The translations under genes were made by a program, and so were the position numbers. Of a stretch of DNA of 64,000 nucleotides, positions 4,383-54,639 are shown piece after piece. The stretch lies in the NCBI RefSeq assembly GCF_058153355.1, contig NZ_CM177019.1, one strand, 5' to 3'. The notes under the pieces were generated by a model. That model was given only the letters and a program-made list of their open reading frames with translations. It ran no database searches and was not told the origin of the DNA. Within the stretch, counting starts at the first letter, position 1. Each line of letters starts with the position of its first letter.

Positions 4383-4510
4383 ATGCCGGATGTGGCCTAC
4401 GGTTCGGCACAGACCTGTAGGCATGATAAGACGCGTCAGCGTCGCATCAGGCATTGTGCGCCAACTGCCGGATGCGGCGTGAACGCCTTATCCGGCCTAC
4501 GAAGGGCAGA
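4383..4510. repeat. BIME: two REP palindromic units in the yjjW/yjjV convergent intergenic region
   Basis: Contains GCCGGATGCGGCGTGAACGCCTTATCCGGCCTAC (4467..4500) and a GATAAGACGCGTCAGCGTCGCATCAGGC unit, both canonical E. coli REP sequences. Confidence 0.85.
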
Positions 4511-39828: not shown

Positions 39829-40409
39829 GCGTTAGTTTCTCCACAGACACAAAACGCCACGACGCCCGGAGCTGCACACTCGCGGGCGTCACTCTTTTCT
39901 GGAGCGCAAAAGATTTTGTAGACCAGTGCTGCATGCTCCTGGAGCTTCGAAATTGACAGATACAACTCATCATTAATTACTGTCTGCTCGTGTGGCTCCA
40001 CTACCCCATCTTCGATTGCCGAACGAATCTGCTTTGAGTAACTCCCGATCTGTTCGATGACTTCCAGCAGACGCTGGTTTATATCGGCGTTCTCTACTTC
40101 CTCAATTTCAGGAAGCGATACAAACACCCCACCAGCAGACTGTGCGACAGCATCCGCAATGTAGTGAGTGCCAGCCGCGCGCTGTAAAATCATTGCCCAT
40201 CCCAGCGGGAAAATCTGATCGCCATCTGCACGAAGGCGGTTGAATAAAGCGTTCTCTGTTACATCCAGCCACTCAGCAGCTTCAGCGTAACCTCCCGGCA
40301 ACGCCGCGATAGTTTTTCTGACAGCTTTCACGTACCACTCAGGCTGTTTTTCTACTTTCCAGTGATGCTTACCCACGGCTATCTCCTTAAAACTGTGGTT
40401 ACTTTCCAT
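39825..40409 (-). CDS. early regulatory protein (YdaT/CII-like position)
   Basis: 194 aa directly downstream of the Cro-like gene; resembles Rac-type YdaT as far as memory allows. Confidence 0.5.
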
Positions 40410-40647
40410 CAGATAAGTCTTTAATCTTTTGAAAAATATCTGGACGTAATTTTTCTTTTGATACGCCAGTGGTCATTTCAATGAATATCGAGAGCTTTGC
40501 AGGGGGACGCTTTTCTCTGTTCAACCAGTTCCAGACATGTTGTTGCTTTACTAAACGACCACTGCTGGCTGTGAGCTTCCGAGCCAATTCTGATTGACCA
40601 CCAGCCAGAGCGATTGCCTCTGATAAGGCTAATTGCTCAGGTGTCAT
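40399..40647 (-). CDS. Cro-like HTH regulator (YdaS-like)
   Basis: 82 aa, divergent from the CI-like repressor across an operator region. Confidence 0.7.
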   Translation of the reverse strand: MTPEQLALSEAIALAGGQSELARKLTASSGRLVKQQHVWNWLNREKRPPAKLSIFIEMTTGVSKEKLRPDIFQKIKDLSDGK

Positions 40648-40650
40648 AGC

Positions 40651-40784
40651 TTTCTCCTATCTGTAAGTAGTAAAGTTGTTGATAACTTCGATTATACAAC
40701 TACAACAACTTTTATTACAACTTTTAGATGTTGGAAAGCTAAAACATAAAGTTGTAACCTCAATAAAAACGAGGGGGATATGTT
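40651..40784. promoter_or_regulatory. OR-like operator/promoter region with repeated AAGTTGT / ACAACTT half-sites
   Basis: Divergent intergenic region between cro-like and cI-like genes with at least four copies of the heptamer in both orientations; the same motif recurs at 41650..41700. Confidence 0.55.
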
Positions 40785-41471
40785 GTGAAAACATTGGCAG
40801 AAAGACTAAAAAGCGAAAGAGAAAAAGCAGGAATGAGTCAGGCGCAACTAGCTGAAAAAATTGGACTTTCACAACAATCCGTAGCGAAAATCGAGAATGG
40901 AGAAACTCAACAGCCTCGGAAAATTAAAGAGATTGCTAAAGTGTTAGGGGTTTCTCAAAAGTGGTTGCAATTGGGCATTGAGGATAACGCGTCTTTCCCA
41001 AACCTTGTTGTAAAGGAGGCTGAAAGTACAACATTAGATCCTGACATTTTTGCAAACATTCCTGTCCTAGATGTCGAATTATCAGCGGGTAATGGATGTT
41101 TGGCTGAAATAGTTGAATCAACTGTAGACTGGTTCCCGCTAAGAAGGATTGATTTAAGGAAAGCTGGTGTATGTGTCTCCAATGCAAAGATCGTAAAAAT
41201 TTGGGGTAATAGTTTACTACCTGTACTTAACAATGGAGATTTTGTTGCTGTTGATGTTTCCCAAACAGTTCCTATTCGTGATGGGGATCTTTATGCTATA
41301 CGTGATGGCGTATTACTTAGAGTTAAAATATTGATCAATTTACCTGACGGTGGTCTGATTCTAAGAAGTTTCAATAAAGATGAGTATCCAGATGAAATAC
41401 TCACCTTCGAAGATAGGCGTTCCAGAATTCACGTTATAGGTAGAGTATTCTGGTCATCGCGCACTTGGTAA
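40785..41471 (+). CDS. CI-like repressor (HTH_XRE N-domain + S24 LexA-type peptidase C-domain)
   Basis: 228 aa; GMSQAQLAEKIGLSQQSVAKIENG HTH; C-terminal domain with Ser (GNSLLP) and Lys (RVKIL) typical of autocleaving repressors; GTG start with SD GAGGGGG. Confidence 0.85.
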   Translation: MKTLAERLKSEREKAGMSQAQLAEKIGLSQQSVAKIENGETQQPRKIKEIAKVLGVSQKWLQLGIEDNASFPNLVVKEAESTTLDPDIFANIPVLDVELSAGNGCLAEIVESTVDWFPLRRIDLRKAGVCVSNAKIVKIWGNSLLPVLNNGDFVAVDVSQTVPIRDGDLYAIRDGVLLRVKILINLPDGGLILRSFNKDEYPDEILTFEDRRSRIHVIGRVFWSSRTW

Positions 41472-41649
41472 TGCATCAAAAACATTCCTTCAGAAATTTA
41501 GTTACCATTATTACCCGCCTTTTCAATCTTCCTCCCGTGATTTGAGAGTTTCCAATCACGGAAGGAAAGTGTCCATTGTGTAATTAAAAGCGCATCGTCC
41601 ATACAACCTCCTTTTTTGATAACCCTAGCCCCCATTTAACATCCGTCAA

Positions 41650-41700
41650 AACCACATAAAGTTGTTGACAACAACCAAAACAACAACTAGATTACAACTT
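41650..41700. promoter_or_regulatory. OL-like operator region (AAGTTGTTGACAACAACC palindrome and further ACAACTT copies)
   Basis: Same heptamer family as the OR region, located downstream of cI and upstream of the plus-strand early-left genes. Confidence 0.5.
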
Positions 41701-41803
41701 AAAGATGTTGCAGTAACGAACAGGCAGGACGCCCACGAAGTAGCCGCCGGTGGCGTATGAATGACCGGATGATTCGTTAAATACTATGTGTAAGAGAGCG
41801 CAA

Positions 41804-42006
41804 ATGAACCGTTATTTCACATGCTCGTTTTGTGGCGCAAACGAGCTGCAGGCAAAAAAATCATCGCCAAAGGCGGAAAAGATGAAGTTGCTATCTGCTC
41901 TGAGTGCGTAGTCTTGTGTGTTGGGGCATTAATCAATATCAGCACAACTATTCAGTTCACACCAAATGAGAATGCGCCTTTAGATGCGCGGAAATCTGGA
42001 GGTTAA
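41804..42006 (+). pseudogene. ClpX-N-type C4 zinc-ribbon protein, reading frame split at an A7 tract (41854..41860)
   Basis: Frame A: MNRYFTCSFCGANELQAKK...; frame B continues ...IIAKGGKDEVAICSECVVLCVGALI. The joined sequence has CxxC-N18-CxxC; a -1 shift at A_AAA_AAA connects the frames. Confidence 0.5.
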
Positions 42007-42098
42007 AGAACAAAATGAAAGTCCAGATTTTAAACAATAACTGTGAAGTCGTTTGGGCGTAAAACATGACCGCGCGTAGACCAAGGGAGGAAAAAGTG

Positions 42099-42272
42099 GG
42101 AATAGTTAGAAATCAAGCAGATATATTGAAAATCAGCTCTGAATTGCTTGGAGTTTTGAAAAGTGAGCTCACCGCACATGGCATCGAGCCCACTGACGAA
42201 AATTTAAGTTGGGTTTTGTCGATTATTCAACAATCACTCAAGCCCAGCCTCAGCAAACTTTTTATCGAGTAG
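42099..42272 (+). CDS. small hypothetical early protein
   Basis: GTG start with strong SD AAGGGAGG; 57 aa; 3' end overlaps a convergent minus-strand ORF. Confidence 0.4.
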   Translation, partial: GIVRNQADILKISSELLGVLKSELTAHGIEPTDENLSWVLSIIQQSLKPSLSKLFIE

Positions 42273-42425
42273 TGCTTCGAACTTATCGTAAAGCTTGCTT
42301 ATGTCGTCTATCGGGTTTTCTGACGTACTGTAATTTTTATCTGATGTCATGGCAGCAGTCTGATATGCAGTGTGAGTCTTAACCGATAGTTGGAATAAAT
42401 AAAGAATTTTTTCTTCTTTGGTCAT
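42234..42425 (-). CDS. small hypothetical acidic protein, convergent and 3'-overlapping
   Basis: 63 aa (MTKEEKILYLFQLSVKTHTAYQ...), SD AAGGAA, low GC. Confidence 0.45.
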   Translation of the reverse strand: MTKEEKILYLFQLSVKTHTAYQTAAMTSDKNYSTSENPIDDISKLYDKFEALLDKKFAEAGLE

Positions 42426-42863
42426 AACTATTTCCTTCTTGGCTATATGAAAACACCAAGATACCACCGAGCCTGAAGTGGTGAAAAGACAGGCACATAA
42501 CAGCTAAGTATTTTCAACCAGAGAGAATCCTTAGCGTTGTGGTGAATGCGGCTCAGCGCACGCGGGTTAAGGTTGAGGTTGACAGTCGACCTTCTGTGGA
42601 TACCCACCCGCCTGGTGTGCAACCTTCGCCAGGCACCGGGAGGCACCCGGCACCACAACTTTATGCTGTGTGTAGTCCTCGCGGTACCAGTTTGTACACT
42701 TGCTTCCGGCTGGTACCGCTCTTTTTACAAAACAGAGAAGGGCATCACCGGACGACGGGCTCATAACCCAATCCATCCGGGCGGCTGCCACCGCAGGTGT
42801 TCTTCTCTGTTTTGTGGAGAAACCAACCGACCTTGCAGGGTCGATATGATGAGGAGCAGCAAA

Positions 42864-43226
42864 ATGGCTAGCGAACGCAGTACTGATGTGCAGGCATTTA
42901 TCGGGGAGCTGGACGGCGGCGTATTTGAAACCAAAATCGGCGCAGTTCTCAGTGAAGTCGCTTCCGGTGTGATGAACACGAAAACCAAAGGTAAGGTCTC
43001 GCTCAACCTGGAAATCGAACCATTTGATGAGAACCGTGTGAAAATCAAACACAAACTCTCATATGTTCGCCCGACTAACCGCGGGAAAATTTCCGAAGAA
43101 GACACCACCGAAACACCGATGTATGTCAATCGCGGTGGTCGCCTGACTATTCTGCAGGAAGACCAGGGACAATTACTGACTCTTGCCGGTGAACCTGACG
43201 GAAAACTACGCGCAGCAGGTCATTAA
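42864..43226 (+). CDS. hypothetical early protein (YfdP-like size and position)
   Basis: ATG at 42864 with SD GAGGAG; 120 aa MASERSTDVQAFIGELDGG...; the upstream part of the track ORF is judged non-coding. Confidence 0.6.
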   Translation: MASERSTDVQAFIGELDGGVFETKIGAVLSEVASGVMNTKTKGKVSLNLEIEPFDENRVKIKHKLSYVRPTNRGKISEEDTTETPMYVNRGGRLTILQEDQGQLLTLAGEPDGKLRAAGH

Positions 43227-43291
43227 TATCGTTCTTAATTAACTGATTATTTATCTCATCACTGAATATCTTTATATAGTGAGGACTTATT

Positions 43292-44116
43292 ATGTCTCAG
43301 AACTTAGACGCAACCGCAATTAATCAAATCCATGCCCTTATTTCTGCTCAGGGTGTTAATGAAATTATTAGTAAGATTGGTGCCGATGCTGTGGCATTGC
43401 CTGAGAATTTCCGCATTCATGATCTGGAAAAATTTAATTTAAATCGCTTCCGTTTCCGTGGTGCGCTTTCCACTGCCAGCATCGATGACTTTACCCGTTA
43501 TTCTAAAGATCTTGCAGATGAAGGCACCCGCTGCTTTATCGATGCCGATAATATGCGTGCCGTCAGTGTGCTTAACCTGGGTACTATTGATGAACCAGGT
43601 CACGCAGATAACACCGCCACTCTCAAACTGAAAAAGACAGCACCGTTCTCTGCTCTGTTGTCTGTTAATGGCGAGCGTAACTCCCAAAAGTCACTGGCAG
43701 AATGGATTGAAGACTGGGCCGACTACCTTGTGGGCTTTGATGCTAATGGTGACGCCATTCAGGCAACCAAAGCGGCTGCGGCGATCCGTAAAATCACAAT
43801 TGAAGCGAACCAGACCGCTGATTTTGAAGACAATGACTTCAGCGGCAAACGCTCCCTGATGGAGTCTGTCGAAGCGAAGACCAAAGACATTATGCCAGTG
43901 GCATTTGAATTTAAATGCGTTCCGTTTGAAGGCCTGAAAGAACGTCCGTTTAAATTACGCCTCAGCATTATCACTGGCGATCGTCCTGTACTGGTTCTGC
44001 GCATTATTCAGCTGGAAGCGGTGCAGGAAGAAATGGCTAACGAATTTCGTGATCTGCTTGTTGAGAAATTTAAAGACAGCAAAGTAGAAACCTTTATTGG
44101 TACTTTCACCGCCTGA
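43292..44116 (+). CDS. YfdQ-family protein (DUF2303-like)
   Basis: 274 aa, the same length as CPS-53 YfdQ; part of a YfdP/Q/R/S-like gene set. Confidence 0.6.
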
Positions 44117-44243
44117 TTTCATTACTGCAAATGCCCCTGCGGGGGCATTTATGGAAACATAATTTACTCAATAATCGCCGGATGGTGAGGGCTTCCTTTT
44201 ACCAGAATTCAGCGCGGTGCAGCGCATATACGTGGAGAACAAA

Positions 44244-44780
44244 ATGTCATTTATTAAAACTTTTTCCGGGAAGCATTTTTATTATGACAAGATAAATAAA
44301 GACGACATCGTTATTAACGATATCGCGGTTTCCCTTTCAAATATCTGTCGCTTTGCAGGGCATCTTTCACACTTCTACAGCGTCGCCCAACATGCGGTGC
44401 TTTGCAGCCAGCTGGTACCGCAGGAATTTGCTTTTGAAGCGTTAATGCATGATGCAACAGAAGCATATTGCCAGGACATCCCCGCACCACTGAAACGACT
44501 TCTTCCTGACTATAAACGGATGGAAGAAAAAATAGACGCCGCAATCCGTGAGAAATACGGGTTACCCCCAGTTGTGAGTACGCCCGTGAAATATGCCGAT
44601 CTCATCATGCTGGCAACCGAACGCCGCGATCTCGGGCTTGATGATGGCTCTTTCTGGCCTGTACTGGAAGGCATCCCGGCAACAGAGATGTTCAACGTGA
44701 TTCCACTGGCACCGGGTCATGCCTACGGGATGTTTATGGAACGTTTTAACGATTTATCGGAGTTACGCAAATGCGCATGA
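44244..44780 (+). CDS. HD-domain 5'-deoxynucleotidase (YfdR-like)
   Basis: ORF 44217..44780; start MSFIKTFSGKHFYYD gives 178 aa; HD-like residues (HAVLCSQ...MHDATEAYCQD). Confidence 0.7.
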   Translation: MSFIKTFSGKHFYYDKINKDDIVINDIAVSLSNICRFAGHLSHFYSVAQHAVLCSQLVPQEFAFEALMHDATEAYCQDIPAPLKRLLPDYKRMEEKIDAAIREKYGLPPVVSTPVKYADLIMLATERRDLGLDDGSFWPVLEGIPATEMFNVIPLAPGHAYGMFMERFNDLSELRKCA

Positions 44781-45133
44781 ATGTTTTCGAAATGGAAGGG
44801 TTTCTTCGCGGGAAATGTGTACCGCGAGATCTGAAAGTGAACGAAACAAATGCTGAGTACCTGGTACGTAAATTCGACGCGCTTGAAGCTAAATGTGCGG
44901 CACTGGAAAACAAAATAATACCAGTGTCAGCTGAACTGCCACCAGCAAATGAAAGTGTTCTGTTATTTGATGCTAATGGAGAAGGCTGGCTGATTGGCTG
45001 GCGTTCTCTCTGGTACACCTGGGGACAAAAAGAAACCGGAGAATGGCAGTGGACATTTCAGGTCGGGGACCTTGAAAACGTCAATATCACTCACTGGGCA
45101 GTAATGCCAAAAGCACCGGAGGCTGGAGCATAA
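44771..45133 (+). CDS. hypothetical protein (YfdS-like)
   Basis: 120 aa; overlaps the upstream stop. Confidence 0.5.
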   Translation: MRMNVFEMEGFLRGKCVPRDLKVNETNAEYLVRKFDALEAKCAALENKIIPVSAELPPANESVLLFDANGEGWLIGWRSLWYTWGQKETGEWQWTFQVGDLENVNITHWAVMPKAPEAGA

Positions 45134-45912
45134 TGACCACATTTACCAATAAAGAACTGATTAAAGAAATCAAAGAACGAATCAGCAGCCTAGAGGTTCG
45201 AGACGATATTGAGCGCCGTGCTTATGAAATTGCTCTGGCATCGCTAGAAGAGGAGCCGGTGGCATGGCTGCATTCAGAAAATGGCTTAGGTATTCCGGCA
45301 ATAACGAGGTGTAAAAACATTGCTGACAGTTGGTTATCAAAGGGCTGGTATGTTCAGCCGCTATATATAGCCAAGCCAGTGCCGGTAGTGCCAGATGCTC
45401 GTCCGTCTTTAAATAATGGCATAGTCGGTTTTGATGAAGGCTGGAACGCCTGCCGCGCCGCCATGCTTCATGGTGCCGAACCTGTAAACCAAACTTACAA
45501 GTCACCACACACGCAGTTTGAACAAGTTGCTGACCTCTACGAAATGCAATTTGATGACGGTCGCACTTGTGCCTTTCACACTGATGCGCAAAAGGCTGCG
45601 CAATGGCTTCAGGTGTGCGACGGAAACAGGGTTCAGGAATACGTTAAGCTGGAACGGCTGCAGAACGCGCTGTCTGGCAACTCTCCGGTAAGTCCGGGTG
45701 GTTGGATAAGCTGTAGTGAGCGAATGCCGAATGATAAACAGTATGTTTGGTGTTGGGGGAAGTCTTACGGCTGGACTGAGTGCGATACCTTCGAAGGGTA
45801 TTATGATTGGTCGAGAAACAAATGGTGGGCAGTTACTGACAATGAGGAAGAACAGGCATCGAAAGTAACCCACTGGATGCCACTACCGGAGCCGCCGCAG
45901 GAGGTGAAGTAA
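45133..45912 (+). CDS. hypothetical protein with Trp-rich C-terminal domain (DUF551-like)
   Basis: 259 aa; C-terminus WISCSERMPNDKQYVWCWGKSYGWTECDTFEGYYDWSRNKWWAVTD. Confidence 0.5.
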   Translation: MTTFTNKELIKEIKERISSLEVRDDIERRAYEIALASLEEEPVAWLHSENGLGIPAITRCKNIADSWLSKGWYVQPLYIAKPVPVVPDARPSLNNGIVGFDEGWNACRAAMLHGAEPVNQTYKSPHTQFEQVADLYEMQFDDGRTCAFHTDAQKAAQWLQVCDGNRVQEYVKLERLQNALSGNSPVSPGGWISCSERMPNDKQYVWCWGKSYGWTECDTFEGYYDWSRNKWWAVTDNEEEQASKVTHWMPLPEPPQEVK

Positions 45913-46106
45913 TGAACAACTTAATGACAACTAAACAAGTCGCCGATTTCTGTGGTGTTTCAGTATCGACAGTTCTTCGCTGGAACAGCGTAAACAGGAG
46001 AACTGGTCAGAAATATAGGCCTGACTTTCCAGATCCTGATATTAAATCCTGCCCAAATAAATGGGCATCACACAAGATTTACAGATTTGCGGGAGTGATT
46101 GAGTAA
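45912..46106 (+). CDS. excisionase/AlpA-like HTH protein
   Basis: 64 aa; TTKQVADFCGVSVSTVLRW helix-turn-helix; located near the integrase. Confidence 0.6.
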   Translation: MNNLMTTKQVADFCGVSVSTVLRWNSVNRRTGQKYRPDFPDPDIKSCPNKWASHKIYRFAGVIE

Positions 46107-46388
46107 TATGTATTAGCTTAGATGTGAGCTGACACATCTATGCTTAGATGCCAAACCTAATCTGAGCGTCCACTCTTTACCAAGAGCGGACGTTACCAAT
46201 GACCATATGACATGAATCGATAAGATCAAAACATTATCACCAAGAAATGTCATACCATTGATACAAATAAAATTGATTACCCCCTTACTCTTGTTGAAAA
46301 GTTAGTCGTAGAGTACCTATCGCAATGTAATCAGCTTTAATCATCTTAAAATTACTCCTTAAAAATTAGCTTTTATATACTGAACAAA

Positions 46389-47108
46389 TTAAATCTCTGT
46401 TTCTTTTCCTGCTCGGCTCAACCAATACTCCATTGTTTGAGTATGAATCTTTTCAGCGTATATTTTATCAATTAATTTATCTTGTTTTTCTTTAATGACT
46501 TCACGCAGTGAATCATATAACATAAAAAAACGTTCATCATCTTCCTCATTATTACCGTAATTTATTTGATTGAGCTCTGAAAAAATATGATAGTACCTTT
46601 TCTTCTTGGTCCCCGGCAATATTAAAACCAAGCCACATTGATCATATTCGAATTCACCTTTATGGGCAGCAAAGTTATGTCTAACATTCATAATAGAATC
46701 ATGTAAATCTCTGTATTTTTCTGGCACATGCTTTCTCTGCAATGTGAATCGACGCCCTTTCGCCTCTGTAAAACACTTACCGTAAGTAACAACTTTTGAT
46801 ATAAATAAAGACTTTAATATTAGATTCTTTTCTAAATCCGGATAAATAAAGTGTTGTTCTTTATTAATGTTATTACAAATGTTTTTTATTATATTCTCCC
46901 AACCAATAACATTCCGAAGATCTTTATCAAGCAACTGTAAGGCCACATATTGTTCTACAAAGCGGCCTTTTAAAGGTATTCGTGGTAATATTACACCTTT
47001 CTGCTTATAAATTCTTTCTATCGTATTATCTGGATATTGGATCTTCCTTATTTCTATTCCGTCTTCTTCTGATACCCTTACTAATGGTTCATTTTTTAAC
47101 TTTGACAT
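46389..47108 (-). CDS. hypothetical protein, AT-rich cargo gene between xis and int
   Basis: 239 aa; markedly AT-rich relative to flanks; own intergenic regions on both sides; no family recognised. Confidence 0.6.
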   Translation of the reverse strand: MSKLKNEPLVRVSEEDGIEIRKIQYPDNTIERIYKQKGVILPRIPLKGRFVEQYVALQLLDKDLRNVIGWENIIKNICNNINKEQHFIYPDLEKNLILKSLFISKVVTYGKCFTEAKGRRFTLQRKHVPEKYRDLHDSIMNVRHNFAAHKGEFEYDQCGLVLILPGTKKKRYYHIFSELNQINYGNNEEDDERFFMLYDSLREVIKEKQDKLIDKIYAEKIHTQTMEYWLSRAGKETEI

Positions 47109-47394
47109 GTTAACCCTCTTAAATAAAAAACTAACTTTATCCAGATAGTGTCCGTTAAGAAGTTTTCGTTACAACTAAGTTTCTAGGTAAATCATGAATC
47201 GACCTATAGTATCAAAAACATTTGGTGGTAAACATCTGCATTTATCAAATGGCAGGAGCGATTTAGGGGCATAGGGATAGTGATGATATCGATACTCGCC
47301 CCCCTCTTATGTCAACACAATGGCGTAAACTTAACGCTCACATCTCGCTCAAAGTGTGCTAGGAGATTTGGTTATGTTCAGGTGATACAAACCG

Positions 47395-48618
47395 TCAGTT
47401 TGAATCAGAGATAGTACAATTAACAATCGATTCAACCCTCTTCCACCATGCCAGGTAAGCTTTACGCTGTTCTTCTAGATAATCGCTCTTATCATAAACT
47501 TGCCATACCCCTGGCAGCTTATGACCAAGCATAATTTCTGCGATATGAGGCGCAGTAAGATCAGAAAAATTTGTTCGAGCTGTACGTCTCAAGTCATGAA
47601 GAGACCAATGAGGGAATTGATATCCTAAACACCGCCATGCGTACTGCATTAAATTGTAAGGCAGCGACTGCAATGATGTCCGACCAACGGGTTCCCTGCT
47701 TCCTTCCTTAGTAAAAAGCATATCGGAACCATTGTTCATAGAGATAGCGTACTTTATAAGCTCTTCAACCGGTTCAATAATGGGCCGCTTTAGCGGTTCG
47801 CCTGTTATCTCCCCTGTCTTATGTCGTTCTGGTGGTACAGTCCATACTTTATTAATGAAATCAAAATCGTCCACCCGGGCGGTAATTAGCTCTGAACTAC
47901 GGCAACCAAAATGCAGCAATAGTTTAATGAAGGCCCGGTATTTAGGAACCATTCGAGAACCATCGATCGCAGCATAAAGGATTTTAATTTCATCATGTGT
48001 CAGAAACCGTTTCTTCTGACCTTTACGGATATCCATATCTTTACCCGTGATATCCGACAGCGGGCGAGTTTCAATGAGCTTTCTCTTATACGCCCAGACA
48101 TGGGCCTGCTTTGCGTTAATTAGCAATCGGTCTGCTATTGCTGGAGTCTTAGTGCTAAGAGGCTCCAGGACTTCTAACCAATCATGCAATGTAGCTGCAT
48201 CGTGAGGGATATTCCCGATTTTAGAGAACAGGTGCAGCTCAAACGAGCGAAGTATCTGTTCAGAACCTTTTTTATTTTTTACACAATATGCTTCATACCA
48301 AGCACGGATCACAGACTCTACCGTCATGGCTTCAGTAGCTTTTCGTTTTTCAGCCTGCTTGACCAATCGTGGATTACGGTTTGACTCGAGTTCACCACGA
48401 AGACGGATAACTTCTTCTCTGGCCTCTTTTAATCCAGTTGCCGGGTAAGTTCCGATATCAAGACGCTCACCTTTCCCTGCCCATTGATAACGATATTGGA
48501 ACACTACGCGACCTTTCGGTGATACTCTGACAGACAGACCATCACGATCGGATTTAACCAAAACCTTATCACGTTCCTTTCCAACGACTGAACGCAACCA
48601 CGCATCAGACAGCGCCAT
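47395..48618 (-). CDS. tyrosine integrase (P4-type)
   Basis: 407 aa; C-terminal catalytic region with HDLRRTARTNF and a downstream Tyr; adjacent to attR and the arm-type sites. Confidence 0.9.
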   Translation of the reverse strand: MALSDAWLRSVVGKERDKVLVKSDRDGLSVRVSPKGRVVFQYRYQWAGKGERLDIGTYPATGLKEAREEVIRLRGELESNRNPRLVKQAEKRKATEAMTVESVIRAWYEAYCVKNKKGSEQILRSFELHLFSKIGNIPHDAATLHDWLEVLEPLSTKTPAIADRLLINAKQAHVWAYKRKLIETRPLSDITGKDMDIRKGQKKRFLTHDEIKILYAAIDGSRMVPKYRAFIKLLLHFGCRSSELITARVDDFDFINKVWTVPPERHKTGEITGEPLKRPIIEPVEELIKYAISMNNGSDMLFTKEGSREPVGRTSLQSLPYNLMQYAWRCLGYQFPHWSLHDLRRTARTNFSDLTAPHIAEIMLGHKLPGVWQVYDKSDYLEEQRKAYLAWWKRVESIVNCTISDSN

Positions 48619-50626: not shown

Positions 50627-51658
50627 ATGTCTGCATTTACCCCGGCAAGTGAAGTCTTGCTGCGTCACAGTGATGATTTCGAACAAAGCCGTATTCTTTT
50701 TGCCGGAGACTTACAGGATGACCTGCCCGCGCGTTTAGATACCGCGGCCAGCCGTGCTCATACCCAGCAGTTCCACCACTGGCAGGTATTAAGCCGCCAA
50801 ATGGGTGATAACGCCCGTTTTAGTCTGGTCGCCACGGCGGATGACGTCGCAGATTGCGATACGCTGATTTACTACTGGCCGAAGAACAAACCGGAAGCCC
50901 AGTTTCAGTTGATGAATTTACTTTCTCTGCTGCCGGTGGGAACGGATATTTTTGTCGTTGGCGAGAACCGAAGCGGCGTGCGCAGCGCCGAGCAGATGCT
51001 GGCAGATTATGCACCGTTGAATAAGGTGGACAGCGCCCGTCGCTGTGGCCTCTATTTTGGTCGTCTGGAAAAACAGCCGGTATTTGATGCCGATAAATTC
51101 TGGGGCGAATACAGCGTCGATGGCCTGACGGTCAAAACGTTGCCGGGCGTGTTTAGCCGCGACGGTCTGGATGTCGGTAGCCAGTTGCTGCTTTCGACGT
51201 TAACCCCGCACACGAAAGGTAAAGTGCTGGATGTCGGCTGCGGTGCAGGCGTTCTTTCAGTTGCCTTTGCACGCCACTCACCGAAGATTCGTCTCACGTT
51301 GTGCGATGTTTCTGCGCCAGCAGTTGAAGCCAGCCGTGCAACACTTGCGGCCAACGGTATTGAAGGTGAAGTCTTTGCCAGCAACGTCTTTTCTGAGGTG
51401 AAAGGTCGTTTTGATATGATCATCTCCAATCCGCCGTTCCACGATGGGATGCAAACCAGTCTGGATGCAGCACAAACGCTGATTCGCGGCGCGGTGCGTC
51501 ATCTTAACAGCGGCGGCGAGCTGCGAATTGTAGCGAACGCCTTCCTGCCTTACCCGGACGTGCTGGATGAGACATTTGGCTTCCACGAAGTGATCGCGCA
51601 AACCGGGCGCTTCAAGGTGTATCGCGCCATTATGACCCGCCAGGCGAAGAAAGGTTAA
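50627..51658 (+). CDS. rsmC: 16S rRNA (guanine1207-N2)-methyltransferase
   Basis: 343 aa with AdoMet motif VLDVGCGAG and NPPFH. Confidence 0.9.
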
Positions 51659-51677
51659 GTATCCCGCCGCAAGCCTT

Positions 51678-51711
51678 GCCGGATGCGGCGTGCTTGCCTT
51701 ATACAACCTAC
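51678..51711. repeat. REP-like palindromic unit with conserved tail
   Basis: GCCGGATGCGGCGTGCTTGCCTTAT...; a paralogous copy with the same downstream tail (CCTA.AAAACCTGCA.GTTAG) occurs at 54148..54189. Confidence 0.6.
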
Positions 51712-51727
51712 AAAACCTGCAAGTTAG

Positions 51728-54090
51728 CCCTGTCGGGTAGCAGCGATTCATTACTGTCTCGCCGCCCCCTAAGAACGGTACGTGCGAGTTTCCCCGCATA
51801 CCGCTCAAGCCTTTATAAGCCTCCACCTTGTGGGAGACCAGCGTCATTACTATGTAGTTGTCGATGGCAGTTGGGATGGAGTAGGACTAAATTGCTCACA
51901 TCATCGCTACCGCCAAGAGATTTCTTGAGCAAATGATGAACATTCCATCCTGTATCGCGATTAATCGGTTGCTCACATAAAGGGCAGCGCGATCCTTGCC
52001 TTTTCCATATAGCGAGAATCCTTTTCTGCCCCTGTTGGGATTTCTTCCATGAGTAGTCCAGCCTTCTTTCGAAGTATGTTTCCCACTCGGGATCATATGG
52101 ATTTGCCGTTCCCTTTATTTTTATATAGCGATTAATATGGATGTCGCTGGCCCGGGACAGAACATATTTCCTACCCTCCGGATCGACTCCATAAAATCGA
52201 CCATGACACATTTTTATTGTCGTGTGGTACTTTCGGAAGATCCATCTCCGGCCTTTGCCGGGATGTCTCCTTCTGCACCACTGCCAGATTTTGCGCCAGA
52301 TTTGGTTGTCGACATAGTTAAATGTCTCTGCCGATGCTACATGTTGGTGATAGTTTGCCCACCCGGTGATGATTGGATTAAGCAGATTTATTAGCACCCA
52401 TGCAGGAACCGTTCGGTTACCTTCAATAGTCTCTCTGATCTTGCTAAGAAATTGTTTAACGTTTTTCTTGGCTGGTCTGATTATGAGTTTTCTACCGAAG
52501 CGTCGGACGTGCTGCCCAAGGAAATCAAATCCGTCAGTAATGTGAGTGATGACCGTTTTCTCTTCGGATAACGTCAGCCCTCTTTCTGCAAGAAATGATT
52601 TCACCAACGGAAGAACATTCTCCTCCAGAAGTTCTTTCGACTTTCCGGAAATGATGAAATCATCAGCATACCGGACGAAGTGAACCTGATGTTTCCTGAA
52701 TGTTTTTGAGCGTTTCGGACCAAAGCGATTTTGCAGCAGTCTTTCCAGTCCATCCAGGGCCATGTTTGCCAGAACTGGAGATATGATTCCTCCCTGGGGT
52801 GTACCCGAGAGAGTTTTGCTGAATATGCTTTTTTCGATGATCCCGGCTTTCAACCAATTACGGAGTATTTGCTTGTCCATAGGAATATTTTCAAGCAGCC
52901 ACTCGTGGCTAATGTGTTCAAAGCATCCTTTAATATCGCCTTCCAGAACCCATTTCGAGGCGTTCCGGGAACTATACATATTACATACCTGTTGAATGGC
53001 GTCAGCCGTACATCGCGCTGGTCTGAAACCATAACTGTTGTGATCTGCATTAGTTTCCGATACAGGCTCCAATCCCAGCAGATGCAGGGCCTGCATTGCC
53101 CTGTCAAGCATGACGGGGATTCCTAATGGTCTTTTCTTGCCATTAGATTTGGGTATAAAAACTCTTTTTAGCGGTAGGGGCTTGTACCCTTTTCGCCTGA
53201 GTTTGAATATCGCTTCCCATTTTGATTCTGGAGTACTCCAGATTTGACCATCAACTCCGGGGGTTTTACGCCCGCTATTTTCCGTAACTCGTTTCACCGC
53301 CAGTGCTCTGGCGCTGAATGAGCGAACCAGCAATCGTTGCAATCTACCGACTGTACGCCATTGCTGGTTACATGCCGCCTTTGCGATTCTTGTCTGTATG
53401 GTTTTAACGTGTTGATGGCATTTCTTCCAGTTAATGGAATGCCAACCTTTTCCGTTGATGACCGCAGTTACATTGTTAGATGTAATTTTCATACATGTCA
53501 TCCAAAGAAACCTTCGCAGATGTTTCGCAATTAAAGACCAGATGGAAGTCAGCACGGTTTCCCGTTAAGGCAAATATTGAACCTCTATCCGCACGATTAC
53601 AGTCCGGCTTTCGCTTTTTCCATCCTCCTTTACCCGCATTCTCATCAGTTTGCCTTACGGTGCCCCTGCCACTAGGGCGAGAATTCGGGCTTACCAAGTT
53701 CCGACCAACATACAAAGAACGGGTTAGGTTCTGTCTATCCGCCGGGGGAGTTATTGTCCATGTATTCCCACTACGAACAGGAATAGCCTTACCCCTTACC
53801 TTTTGGTGCAAGCCTATCAGCATCTTTGGCTCGTTCTCTGTTACGACGTTTAACGACAGTTCACTATGTTAACCATACCGCCCAGCCTAGCGCTCTCGCC
53901 GCATGATGCTTGTAGCGATCAGGTTTTCTCACGATTAACTGAAGCAATATTTGCTAAGCTACATTGTCCCAAGGGCTTCAGACAGAGCCGTTACCAGCTT
54001 TGCCTGCCTCAGTAGGCTACAACTAATGGAATAGTTGGTTTTATATAAATAATTTATCAAAACAATATGTTGGACGACTTCTTGTCGCAC
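51728..54090 (-). mobile_element. group II intron (~2.36 kb), boundaries approximate at the 3' end
   Basis: 5' end GTGCGACAAG (reverse complement of 54081..54090); RT/maturase/HNH ORF; canonical domain V GAGCGGTATGCGGGGAAACTCGCACGTACCGTTC (reverse complement of 51773..51806) 7 nt after the ORF stop. Confidence 0.75.
51813..53492 (-). CDS. group II intron reverse transcriptase/maturase with C-terminal HNH endonuclease domain
   Basis: ORF 51813..53555; RT motifs including YADDFII; maturase (X) region; C-terminal CPLCEQ...HH...NCHRQLH; likely start at MKITSNNVT. Confidence 0.85.
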   Translation of the reverse strand: MKITSNNVTAVINGKGWHSINWKKCHQHVKTIQTRIAKAACNQQWRTVGRLQRLLVRSFSARALAVKRVTENSGRKTPGVDGQIWSTPESKWEAIFKLRRKGYKPLPLKRVFIPKSNGKKRPLGIPVMLDRAMQALHLLGLEPVSETNADHNSYGFRPARCTADAIQQVCNMYSSRNASKWVLEGDIKGCFEHISHEWLLENIPMDKQILRNWLKAGIIEKSIFSKTLSGTPQGGIISPVLANMALDGLERLLQNRFGPKRSKTFRKHQVHFVRYADDFIISGKSKELLEENVLPLVKSFLAERGLTLSEEKTVITHITDGFDFLGQHVRRFGRKLIIRPAKKNVKQFLSKIRETIEGNRTVPAWVLINLLNPIITGWANYHQHVASAETFNYVDNQIWRKIWQWCRRRHPGKGRRWIFRKYHTTIKMCHGRFYGVDPEGRKYVLSRASDIHINRYIKIKGTANPYDPEWETYFERRLDYSWKKSQQGQKRILAIWKRQGSRCPLCEQPINRDTGWNVHHLLKKSLGGSDDVSNLVLLHPNCHRQLHSNDAGLPQGGGL

Positions 54091-54093
54091 TCG

Positions 54094-54181
54094 TAGGCCA
54101 GATAAGACGCGCCCGCGTCGCATCTGGCATCTGCACCCAAATACCGTGTCGGATGCGGCATGAACGCCTTATCCGACCTAT
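54094..54181. repeat. BIME: two REP units abutting the intron 5' end
   Basis: TAGGCCAGATAAGACGCGCCCGCGTCGCATCTGGCA and GTCGGATGCGGCATGAACGCCTTATCCGACCTAT. Confidence 0.7.
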
Positions 54182-54248
54182 AAAACCTGCACGTTAGTTT
54201 CCTGATGGACATTTTTCCAGCAATTACACCTCCGTCGATAATTAACTA

Positions 54249-54276
54249 TTGACGAAAAGCTGAAAACCACTAGAAT
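54249..54276 (+). promoter_or_regulatory. leu tRNA operon promoter (-35 TTGACG, 16-bp spacer, -10 TAGAAT)
   Basis: Strong sigma70 elements ~40 bp upstream of the first tRNA. Confidence 0.6.
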
Positions 54277-54317
54277 GCGCCTCCGTGGTAGCAATTCTTT
54301 TTAAGAATTGATGGTAT

Positions 54318-54404
54318 GCGAAGGTGGCGGAATTGGTAGACGCGCTAGCTTCAGGTGTTAGTGTCCTTACGGACGTGGGGGTTCAAGTCCCCCCCCTCGC
54401 ACCA
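54318..54404 (+). tRNA. leuQ: tRNA-Leu (anticodon CAG), copy 1
   Basis: 87-nt sequence GCGAAGGTGGCGGAATTGGTAGACGCGCTAGCTTCAGGTGTTAGTGTCCTTACGGACGTGGGGGTTCAAGTCCCCCCCCTCGCACCA, matching E. coli tRNA-Leu1 with encoded CCA. Confidence 0.95.
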
Positions 54405-54432
54405 AAAACCACGTTGATATTGCTCGCACTGG

Positions 54433-54519
54433 GCGAAGGTGGCGGAATTGGTAGACGCGCTAGCTTCAGGTGTTAGTGTTCTTACGGACGTGGGGGTTCA
54501 AGTCCCCCCCCTCGCACCA
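54433..54519 (+). tRNA. leuP: tRNA-Leu (CAG), copy 2 (one C to T difference in the variable arm)
   Basis: Same 87-nt sequence except GTGTTCTTACGG instead of GTGTCCTTACGG. Confidence 0.95.
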
Positions 54520-54552
54520 AACGAGGCGATATCAAAAAAGTAAGATGACTGT

Positions 54553-54639
54553 GCGAAGGTGGCGGAATTGGTAGACGCGCTAGCTTCAGGTGTTAGTGTC
54601 CTTACGGACGTGGGGGTTCAAGTCCCCCCCCTCGCACCA
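54553..54639 (+). tRNA. leuV: tRNA-Leu (CAG), copy 3
   Basis: Identical to copy 1. Confidence 0.95.

Follow-up and report, generated by a model that had tools for sequence, protein, structure and literature searches.

A plasmid toxin-gene group II intron in the tail of a REP element between rsmC and leuQ of an Escherichia coli chromosome

Introduction

How does a group II intron come to lie between genes, among the short palindromic repeats of a bacterial chromosome? The question is raised by a 64,000-nucleotide stretch of contig NZ_CM177019.1 (NCBI RefSeq assembly GCF_058153355.1; hereafter the window), in which a complete group II intron of 2,359 nt occupies positions 51732-54090 on the minus strand, in the spacer between rsmC and leuQ. 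We find that this intron belongs to a lineage at home in hok-family toxin genes of enterobacterial plasmids, and that the repetitive extragenic palindromic (REP) element beside which it sits ends in a tail that reproduces the homing site of that lineage. Based on these data, we propose that the insertion very probably arose by ectopic retrohoming through target mimicry, in which a plasmid intron of the IIB1 type, with a chloroplast-like 1 (CL1) reverse transcriptase (RT) and an endonuclease (En) domain, would have entered the REP tail. The REP tail would have served as a landing site because it matches the plasmid target.

Results and Discussion

The insertion site reproduces a plasmid homing site

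Comparison with the intron-less allele of Escherichia coli ABW_A32, a check that a preliminary description of this locus had suggested, shows that the insertion is precise. On the plus strand the empty spacer reads ...GTTAGCCCT/TCGTAGGCC... (AGCCCT/TCGTAGG; here and below a slash marks the junction), which fixes both junctions to the base and leaves neither a target duplication nor any ambiguity in the boundary. On the strand of the intron the occupied site reads ...GCGUCUUAUCUGGCCUACGA/intron/AGGGCUAAC. The intron opens with GTGCGAC at 54090 and closes with ...CTACCCGAC at 51732, and its ends thus have the GUGYG (GUGCG at 54086-54090) and AY (...GAC at 51732) forms of a group II intron. The preliminary description had given the element a wider range, 51678-54189; the intron lies within it, and the extra ends are flanking REPs. 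Removal of 51732-54090 yields an empty site that matches several E. coli chromosomes as a single alignment (99.2%); it is covered to at least 80% in 4,320 of 5,426 complete E. coli genomes, the unoccupied target being close to universal there. No chromosomal copy of the intron was found in these 5,426 genomes, and only two plasmids there carry it.

The relatives of the intron point to its home. The plasmid database PLSDB holds about 20 full-length relatives (77-99.6% identity) on plasmids of Escherichia, Salmonella, Citrobacter and Enterobacter, and the annotation beneath them is almost always a Hok/Gef toxin. We read junctions at eight plasmid loci, in five metagenome contigs and in eight further assemblies; of the 193 members of the protein cluster, the site census covers 40. 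Almost all the PLSDB relatives and metagenome copies lie in a hok-family gene, on its sense strand and 3-4 codons before the stop (L005:1364-1534 and 3862 onward; L008, L072-L074). Two sub-lineages can be told apart. One lies in hok proper, at ...FMAYE/SGK (DNA ...TCATGGCTTACGA/ATCC), and has the exon-binding sites (EBS) CATGA (EBS2) and TCGTAA (EBS1). The other lies in a variant gene, which we take to be srnB-like, at ...TLAYE/ARK (DNA ...CTCTGGCCTACGA/AGCA), and has EBS2 CAGAG and EBS1 TCGTAG; the spliced exons of this second site encode a Hok/Gef protein (PF01848 HOK_GEF, E=3e-10). The EBSs and the intron-binding sites (IBS) of the exon change together between copies, with EBS2/IBS2 being CAGAG/CTCTG versus CATGA/TCATG and EBS1/IBS1 being UCGUAG/CUACGA versus UCGUAA/UUACGA. 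This concerted change directly supports both pairings.

The window intron belongs to the srnB-like sub-lineage. It differs at 10 of 2,359 positions from the copy on plasmid pRHB33-C08_2 (L004) and is 100% identical, over the available 2,333 nt, to a copy in the cognate plasmid srnB-like site (L066), whose contig has a plasmid-type context (SNase, Hha, DUF2726 and Hok/Gef). The REP tail that the intron has entered, CTTATCTGGCCTACGA/A, reproduces the plasmid homing site CTCTGGCCTACGA/A of the srnB-like gene. The intron begins 3 nt beyond the GGCCTAC tail of an inverted Z-type REP (54093-54128): in this E. coli REP subfamily the tail, CTTATCTGGCCTAC, and the GA/A that follows it supply target positions -12 to +1, and at rsmC-leuQ the identity with the srnB-like homing site runs from -12 to +2 (TCTGGCCTACGA/AG). 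The pairing between IBS and EBS, which the preliminary description had proposed to test against the flanks, is found here at 6 of 6 positions for IBS1 and 4 of 5 for IBS2, and the +1 A is the same as in the srnB-like site.

In the plasmid home, unspliced mRNA would encode a protein ending in ...AYECDKKSSNILF, not in ...AYESGK or ...AYEARK, and the 3' untranslated region would be displaced by 2.4 kb; in hok-family genes, splicing would be needed for the toxin C-terminus and for mRNA continuity. Given this change of C-terminus and the parting of the gene from its 3' untranslated region, splicing could gate toxin expression. At rsmC-leuQ the intron interrupts no gene, so that splicing is not required there and the copy is probably neutral. 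Two further plasmid observations concern the relatives. In Enterobacter sp. JBIWA005 plasmids, a 77% identical relative (L009) retains the ribozyme ends and the hok site but has a broken protein frame (110 aa) and is therefore decaying. On E. coli plasmid pCRST030_1, another ltrA (a group II intron RT gene; L002:8164-8365), different from that of the hok-borne intron, lies near ssb, about 3 kb from that intron.

The intron and its protein

The preliminary description had recognised an intact, full-length group II intron from its RT-maturase-HNH protein, GTGCG end and domain V, and had left room for an element without recognisable intron domains or for a retron or other RT-bearing element. We find the ribozyme domains, the protein and the 5' end all in place. 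Rfam models match both for domain I (RF02012, at 53891-54038 on the minus strand, with 112.5 bits where the gathering score is 34) and for domains V/VI (RF00029, at 51732-51808 on the minus strand, with 65.5 bits where it is 40), and the 64-kb window has no second intron copy. An RNAalifold consensus of 7 copies (77-99.6% identical) recovers the first three domains and the beginning of domain IV, and among the 180 pairs predicted in domains I-III there are 11 with compensatory changes. EBS1 was placed by the conserved AUUCC/GGAAU hairpin together with its covariation with the exon; the RNAalifold drawing pairs the EBS1 loop differently. The fold of domains V and VI, also put forward for checking, is borne out by an invariant domain V and by a domain VI in which the branch-point A, at 51738, is bulged and stands 7 nt before the 3' splice site.

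The intron-encoded protein (IEP) scores 369.5 bits against TIGR04416, the NCBIfam equivalog for group II RT/maturases (cut-off 300), and ends in an HNH domain (PF01844, residues 503-548, E=8e-10). It aligns end to end (residues 15-551) with the T.el4h protein (PDB 6ME0) at 627 bits, compared with 138 bits for LtrA (IIA) and at most 130 bits for GsI-IIC and other IIC RTs. By this best PDB similarity, which is not a phylogeny, the intron would be closest to subgroup IIB1 with a CL1 protein. Both T.el4h and EcI5 belong to IIB1 and encode CL1 reverse transcriptases (PMC8643678).

Could the RT instead come from a retron or another non-intron retroelement? The protein does show weak similarity to retron and Drt RT models, but this falls far below the cut-offs (50.6 bits against 235 for retron St85) while TIGR04416 is passed, the covariance matches to domains I, V and VI flank the open reading frame, and no retron non-coding RNA is among the Rfam matches of the window. 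These results exclude a retron identity, and we give the wider alternative no weight.

The window copy looks functional, to judge from a reading frame with neither a frameshift nor a premature stop. Substitutions that had appeared specific to the window are not signs of decay, as the plasmid copy L066 has the same bases.

An intergenic position immediately 3' of a GC-rich stem-loop is also typical of class C (IIC) introns, which insert after terminator or attC stem-loops. These introns lack EBS2 and an En domain, and their IEPs have about 420 aa. The window intron is not one of them, since it has a co-varying EBS2, an HNH domain and an IEP of 559 aa. A related possibility is that the REP hairpin itself is recognised in the IIC manner. 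A GC-rich hairpin does stand a few nucleotides 5' of the intron at both REP loci known to be occupied (the second is described below). Against this, the intron has EBS2 and En and a CL1-like rather than IIC-like protein, the cognate hok and srnB-like sites have no REP hairpin, and base pairing alone explains the site. We therefore regard hairpin recognition as highly improbable.

Two REP loci are occupied

Further copies came from a look-up of the exact protein sequence in public assemblies. In two draft E. coli genomes the lineage occupies a second REP, between ybaL and gsk, with the same 17-mer target (5' exon ...GCCTTATCTGGCCTACGA/, 3' exon ACCGACG); with the intron taken out, this site is found uninterrupted and at 100% identity in many E. 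coli chromosomes. E. coli K-12 MG1655 has both targets, rsmC-leuQ and ybaL-gsk, unoccupied, so that there are at least two target loci. The 17-mer, CTTATCTGGCCTACGAA, has 37 matches in 100,044 species-representative genomes, which is about the chance expectation; representative genomes of Escherichia or Citrobacter have 0-2 copies each, all of them at REPs. This count rules out a highly dispersed exact target. Judged from it, the target is a rare variant of a dispersed repeat and not the whole REP family. The preliminary description had suggested homing into a repeated, REP-associated element; this holds in so far as the tail of a third REP is the target and ybaL-gsk is occupied as well, for a reason other than the one given, whereas the idea of a highly dispersed target does not.

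The first 28 nt of the intron have no match in the 100,044 representative genomes, from which the family is thus absent. Metagenome contigs give 5 matches to the same 28-mer, four of them at hok sites and one at an ectopic site that is not a REP; no REP site is among the five. The hok sub-lineage serves as a control: its copies were met only in hok itself or at ectopic sites, none of them a REP, that fit their own EBSs (L006, L014, L068). In the last of these (ENA ERZ27260105 contig), the intron lies at ...AATCATGGTTAACGA/AACTCG beside another RVT_1-containing open reading frame, and may be within or beside a different retroelement. Within the window, a near-cognate REP target, ATCCGGCCTACGA/AGGGC, is present at 4482-4508 (plus strand) and unoccupied; it agrees with the occupied site at every position from -8 to +5, and its single IBS2 mismatch is at -10.

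The rsmC-leuQ insertion itself was met a second time, in a 3-kb Logan contig whose intron differs by 1 nt. The rsmC-side flank of this contig is 95% identical to the window (629/662), with the first difference at +10, and belongs to a different rsmC allele class, which suggests that this site was entered twice, independently. The alternative is that the window acquired its insertion by homologous recombination from an E. coli already carrying it, a single original event having later spread. The near-identity of the introns in two backgrounds is what such spread would give, recombination in E. coli is frequent, and the rsmC allele of the window is unusual (1 genome at 99% or more). The divergence of the flanks from +10, at 95% over 662 nt, nevertheless leaves no shared recombination tract visible, and retromobility is needed in any case for the second REP locus. 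We consider spread by recombination decidedly unlikely.

Two kinds of contig stand apart. In ABUXTC010000036.1 of GCA_042204225.1 (L059) the intron has the srnB-like flank of the plasmid on its 5' side and the gsk-side flank of the chromosome on its 3' side, which reflects either an assembler collapse of two copies or plasmid-chromosome recombination through the intron. In many short-read assemblies the intron forms a contig of its own (L063, with 2,330 nt and 18 samples, and L055, L064, L065 and L071), as expected of an assembler when the intron occupies more than one site in a sample.

A proposed route from plasmid to REP

In mobile introns of this type, the established pathway begins with EBS-IBS pairing, which sets the site where a lariat ribonucleoprotein enters the top strand by reverse splicing; En nicks the bottom strand, and the target DNA primes reverse transcription. 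By analogy, we infer the pathway, the plasmid-to-chromosome direction and any present-day activity of the window intron as follows. A ribonucleoprotein expressed from a plasmid copy would reverse-splice into the REP tail of the rsmC-leuQ spacer on the chromosome, on the minus strand in window terms. The opposite strand would then be nicked by the HNH domain, and target-primed reverse transcription would copy the intron. The expected outcome is a precise insertion without duplication.

An endonuclease-independent route is conceivable, in which the intron reverse-splices into single-stranded DNA at a replication fork or in an extruded REP hairpin and is primed by a nascent strand, as for Ll.LtrB and RmInt1. 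REPs are able to form hairpins, the sites share no conserved sequence beyond the core that pairs with the EBSs, and at rsmC-leuQ the intron sense strand is the leading-strand sequence, which is the orientation expected for lagging-strand priming. At ybaL-gsk, however, the orientation relative to replication is the opposite: judged by GC skew and the K-12 map, the intron is co-oriented with replication at rsmC-leuQ and counter-oriented at ybaL-gsk, which is weak evidence against a fork-dependent mechanism. The HNH domain of the IEP is intact, and IBS2 pairing is kept at both REP sites although retrotransposition into single-stranded DNA does not need IBS2 (PMC8643678). On balance such a route is unlikely.

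Some observations weigh against ectopic retrohoming into a look-alike of the plasmid target. Positions -12 to +1 are all that the srnB-like, rsmC-leuQ REP and ybaL-gsk REP sites have in common; the srnB-like and REP sites differ at -13 to -16 and from +2 onward, the window REP itself matching through +2. At -14 the srnB-like site has A and both REP sites have T. In EcI5, a Watson-Crick EBS2a-IBS2a pair at this position is essential (PMC8643678), and the EBS2a candidates here, U248 and the lineage-specific A249, each make such a pair with one type of site only. Either this intron is less strict about EBS2a or it uses the REP sites with low efficiency; the latter would agree with the rarity of REP copies. 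In addition, the Logan contig is short and extends just 12 nt into the 5' flank, the subgroup assignment follows a best structural match, and no promoter-like site was found upstream on the strand of the intron, where the sole same-strand gene, yjjZ, lies beyond the antisense tRNA genes. At intron position 178, a G to A change that is also present in the identical plasmid copy L066 turns a domain I G-C pair into A-C.

Comparison with known systems

The closest counterpart of known structure is T.el4h (Th.e.I3 of Thermosynechococcus elongatus; PDB 6ME0/6MEC). It has the same RT-X-D-En architecture, with an IEP that aligns from end to end, and the same manner of recognition by EBS1, an internal-loop EBS2 and a single 3'-exon base. 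It differs in its cyanobacterial host, its target and a ribozyme too distant for nucleotide alignment. T.el4h has an EBS2a-IBS2a pairing at -14, a position for which U248 and A249 of the window intron each fit one site type. EcI5, from the E. coli plasmid pO157, is likewise plasmid-borne in E. coli, En-positive and IIB1. It recognises its target through about 12-14 RNA-DNA base pairs and a few protein contacts, and requires C-18, C-17, A-15, A-14 and T+5 (PMC8643678). Such flanking positions are not conserved among the srnB-like and the two REP sites, EcI5 being compared here by description.

Ectopic retrotransposition is familiar from Ll.LtrB (IIA) and RmInt1 (IIB3), which enter non-cognate sites whose likeness to the homing site lies mainly in the stretch paired by the EBSs. 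Those sites are scattered weak matches, whereas here IBS2 pairing is kept and a conserved repeat tail is reused at two loci. REP elements and bacterial interspersed mosaic elements (BIMEs) are also chromosomal landing sites for insertion sequences such as IS1397, ISKpn1 and ISPpu9/10 (PMC1525189). These, however, rely on DNA transposases that recognise REP DNA, while in the present case intron RNA base pairs with the REP tail.

A search for a hok- or REP-associated group II intron returned nothing relevant in the searchable literature; the sole paper naming both hok and an intron concerns a different intron, downstream of ycjA. The hok-family home, the two retargeted sub-lineages and the repeated landing in REP tails thus appear to be undescribed there. 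The element itself is of a known kind, a mobile IIB1/CL1 intron, and ectopic retrohoming into look-alike sites is allowed by the known mechanism. Our understanding of group II intron function is unchanged, and known principles are illustrated. What the locus offers is a clean natural example of RNA-guided target choice giving a plasmid retroelement a chromosomal foothold: a 13-nt coincidence between the codons of a toxin gene and the tail of a host repeat was enough, and at least three or four strains show its use, at one or other of two loci.

A broader possibility, which we regard as rather doubtful, is that CTTATCTGGCCTACGA/A REP tails, which nearly all E. coli conserve, are true secondary homing sites rather than accidental targets and let a plasmid toxin-gene intron lineage colonise chromosomes repeatedly, this niche having been opened by the change of EBS1 and EBS2 from hok-type to srnB-type. 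If this is true, chromosomal copies could serve as reservoirs and as homology patches for plasmid-chromosome recombination (compare L059 above). The two intergenic sites, conserved across E. coli including K-12 and naturally tolerant of insertion, could also suit engineering of the targetron type.

The REP cluster and its gene neighbourhood

The spacer between rsmC and leuQ is a native REP cluster of three units (Y, inverted Z, Y), all of which are found in intron-less alleles; K-12 has the Z unit together with the target. The Rfam model naRNA4, which is REP-derived, matches with 66.5 bits at 54096-54178. The target REP is an imperfect GC-rich palindrome with a GGCCTAC tail, repeated and independent of the intron, as expected of a REP/BIME unit. 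The intron is flanked by a 54-nt direct repeat (51674-51727 and 54144-54197, 81% identity) made of the two Y units and their linkers. This paralogous pair had been taken in the preliminary description as a pointer to the target; both copies are present in intron-less alleles, including K-12, and the pair is neither the target nor a product of the insertion. The same description had placed the intron between genes, among REPs, about 160 bp upstream of the leuQPV promoter and antisense to it, which agrees with the 159 bp that we measure from the intron 5' end to the leuQ -35 hexamer (54249) on the opposite strand; its suggestion of an effect on leuQPV promoter context is unsupported. Coordinates are collected in Table 1.

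Table 1. Features of the intron, its target and its surroundings (window coordinates).
Feature	Position	Strand	Remarks
rsmC	50627..51658	+	convergent with intron; stop codon 73 nt from intron 3' end
Y-type REP (about 51678-51711) and linker, direct-repeat copy 1	51674..51727	+	present in intron-less alleles
First 3'-exon base, A, presumed IBS3	51731	-	A in every copy examined
Complete group II intron	51732..54090	-	5' GUGCGAC ... CUACCCGAC 3'; from empty-allele junctions and Rfam RF02012, RF00029
Domain VI	51735..51769	-	helix backed by G-C/A-U and G-U changes
Domain V	51773..51806	-	34-nt hairpin, AGC triad, 2-nt bulge; RF00029; invariant in 7 copies
IEP, 559 aa and stop, in domain IV	51813..53492	-	RVT_N, RT RVT_1 (YADD), maturase X (GIIM), HNH
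Domains II and III	53533..53690	-	approximate, predicted; RNAalifold consensus with compensatory pairs
Ribozyme domain I	53695..54084	-	approximate limits, RNAalifold; Rfam D1D4-7 match 53891-54038
EBS1 5'-UCGUAG (intron 315-320)	53771..53776	-	loop of AUUCC...GGAAU hairpin; 6/6 pairs with IBS1, co-varies
EBS2 5'-CAGAG (intron 251-255)	53836..53840	-	pairs and co-varies with IBS2
5' exon target	54091..54103	-	IBS1 CUACGA 54091-54096 (-1 to -6); IBS2 AUCUG 54099-54103 (-9 to -13)
Z-type REP, target REP (palindromic unit)	54093..54128	-	GCCAGAUGCGACGCGGGCGCGUCUUAUCUGGCCUAC on minus strand; sequence; Rfam naRNA4/REP match; in empty alleles
Y-type REP (about 54148-54181) and linker, direct-repeat copy 2	54144..54197	+	present in intron-less alleles
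leuQPV	54249..54639	+	-35 TTGACG at 54249, -10 TAGAAT ending 54276; three tRNA-Leu(CAG) genes; divergent from intron

Two further observations concern the window itself. The 3' half of rsmC (51070-51731) has a match of at least 99% in only 1 of 5,424 complete E. coli genomes and matches of 90-95% in 5,048; either rsmC is strikingly polymorphic or the source strain is from a rare lineage. Positions 40001-48000 have a low G+C content of 0.42-0.44 (about 0.51 elsewhere), a flat GC skew and an Rfam STnc100 match at 42506-42728, and may be a horizontally acquired island.

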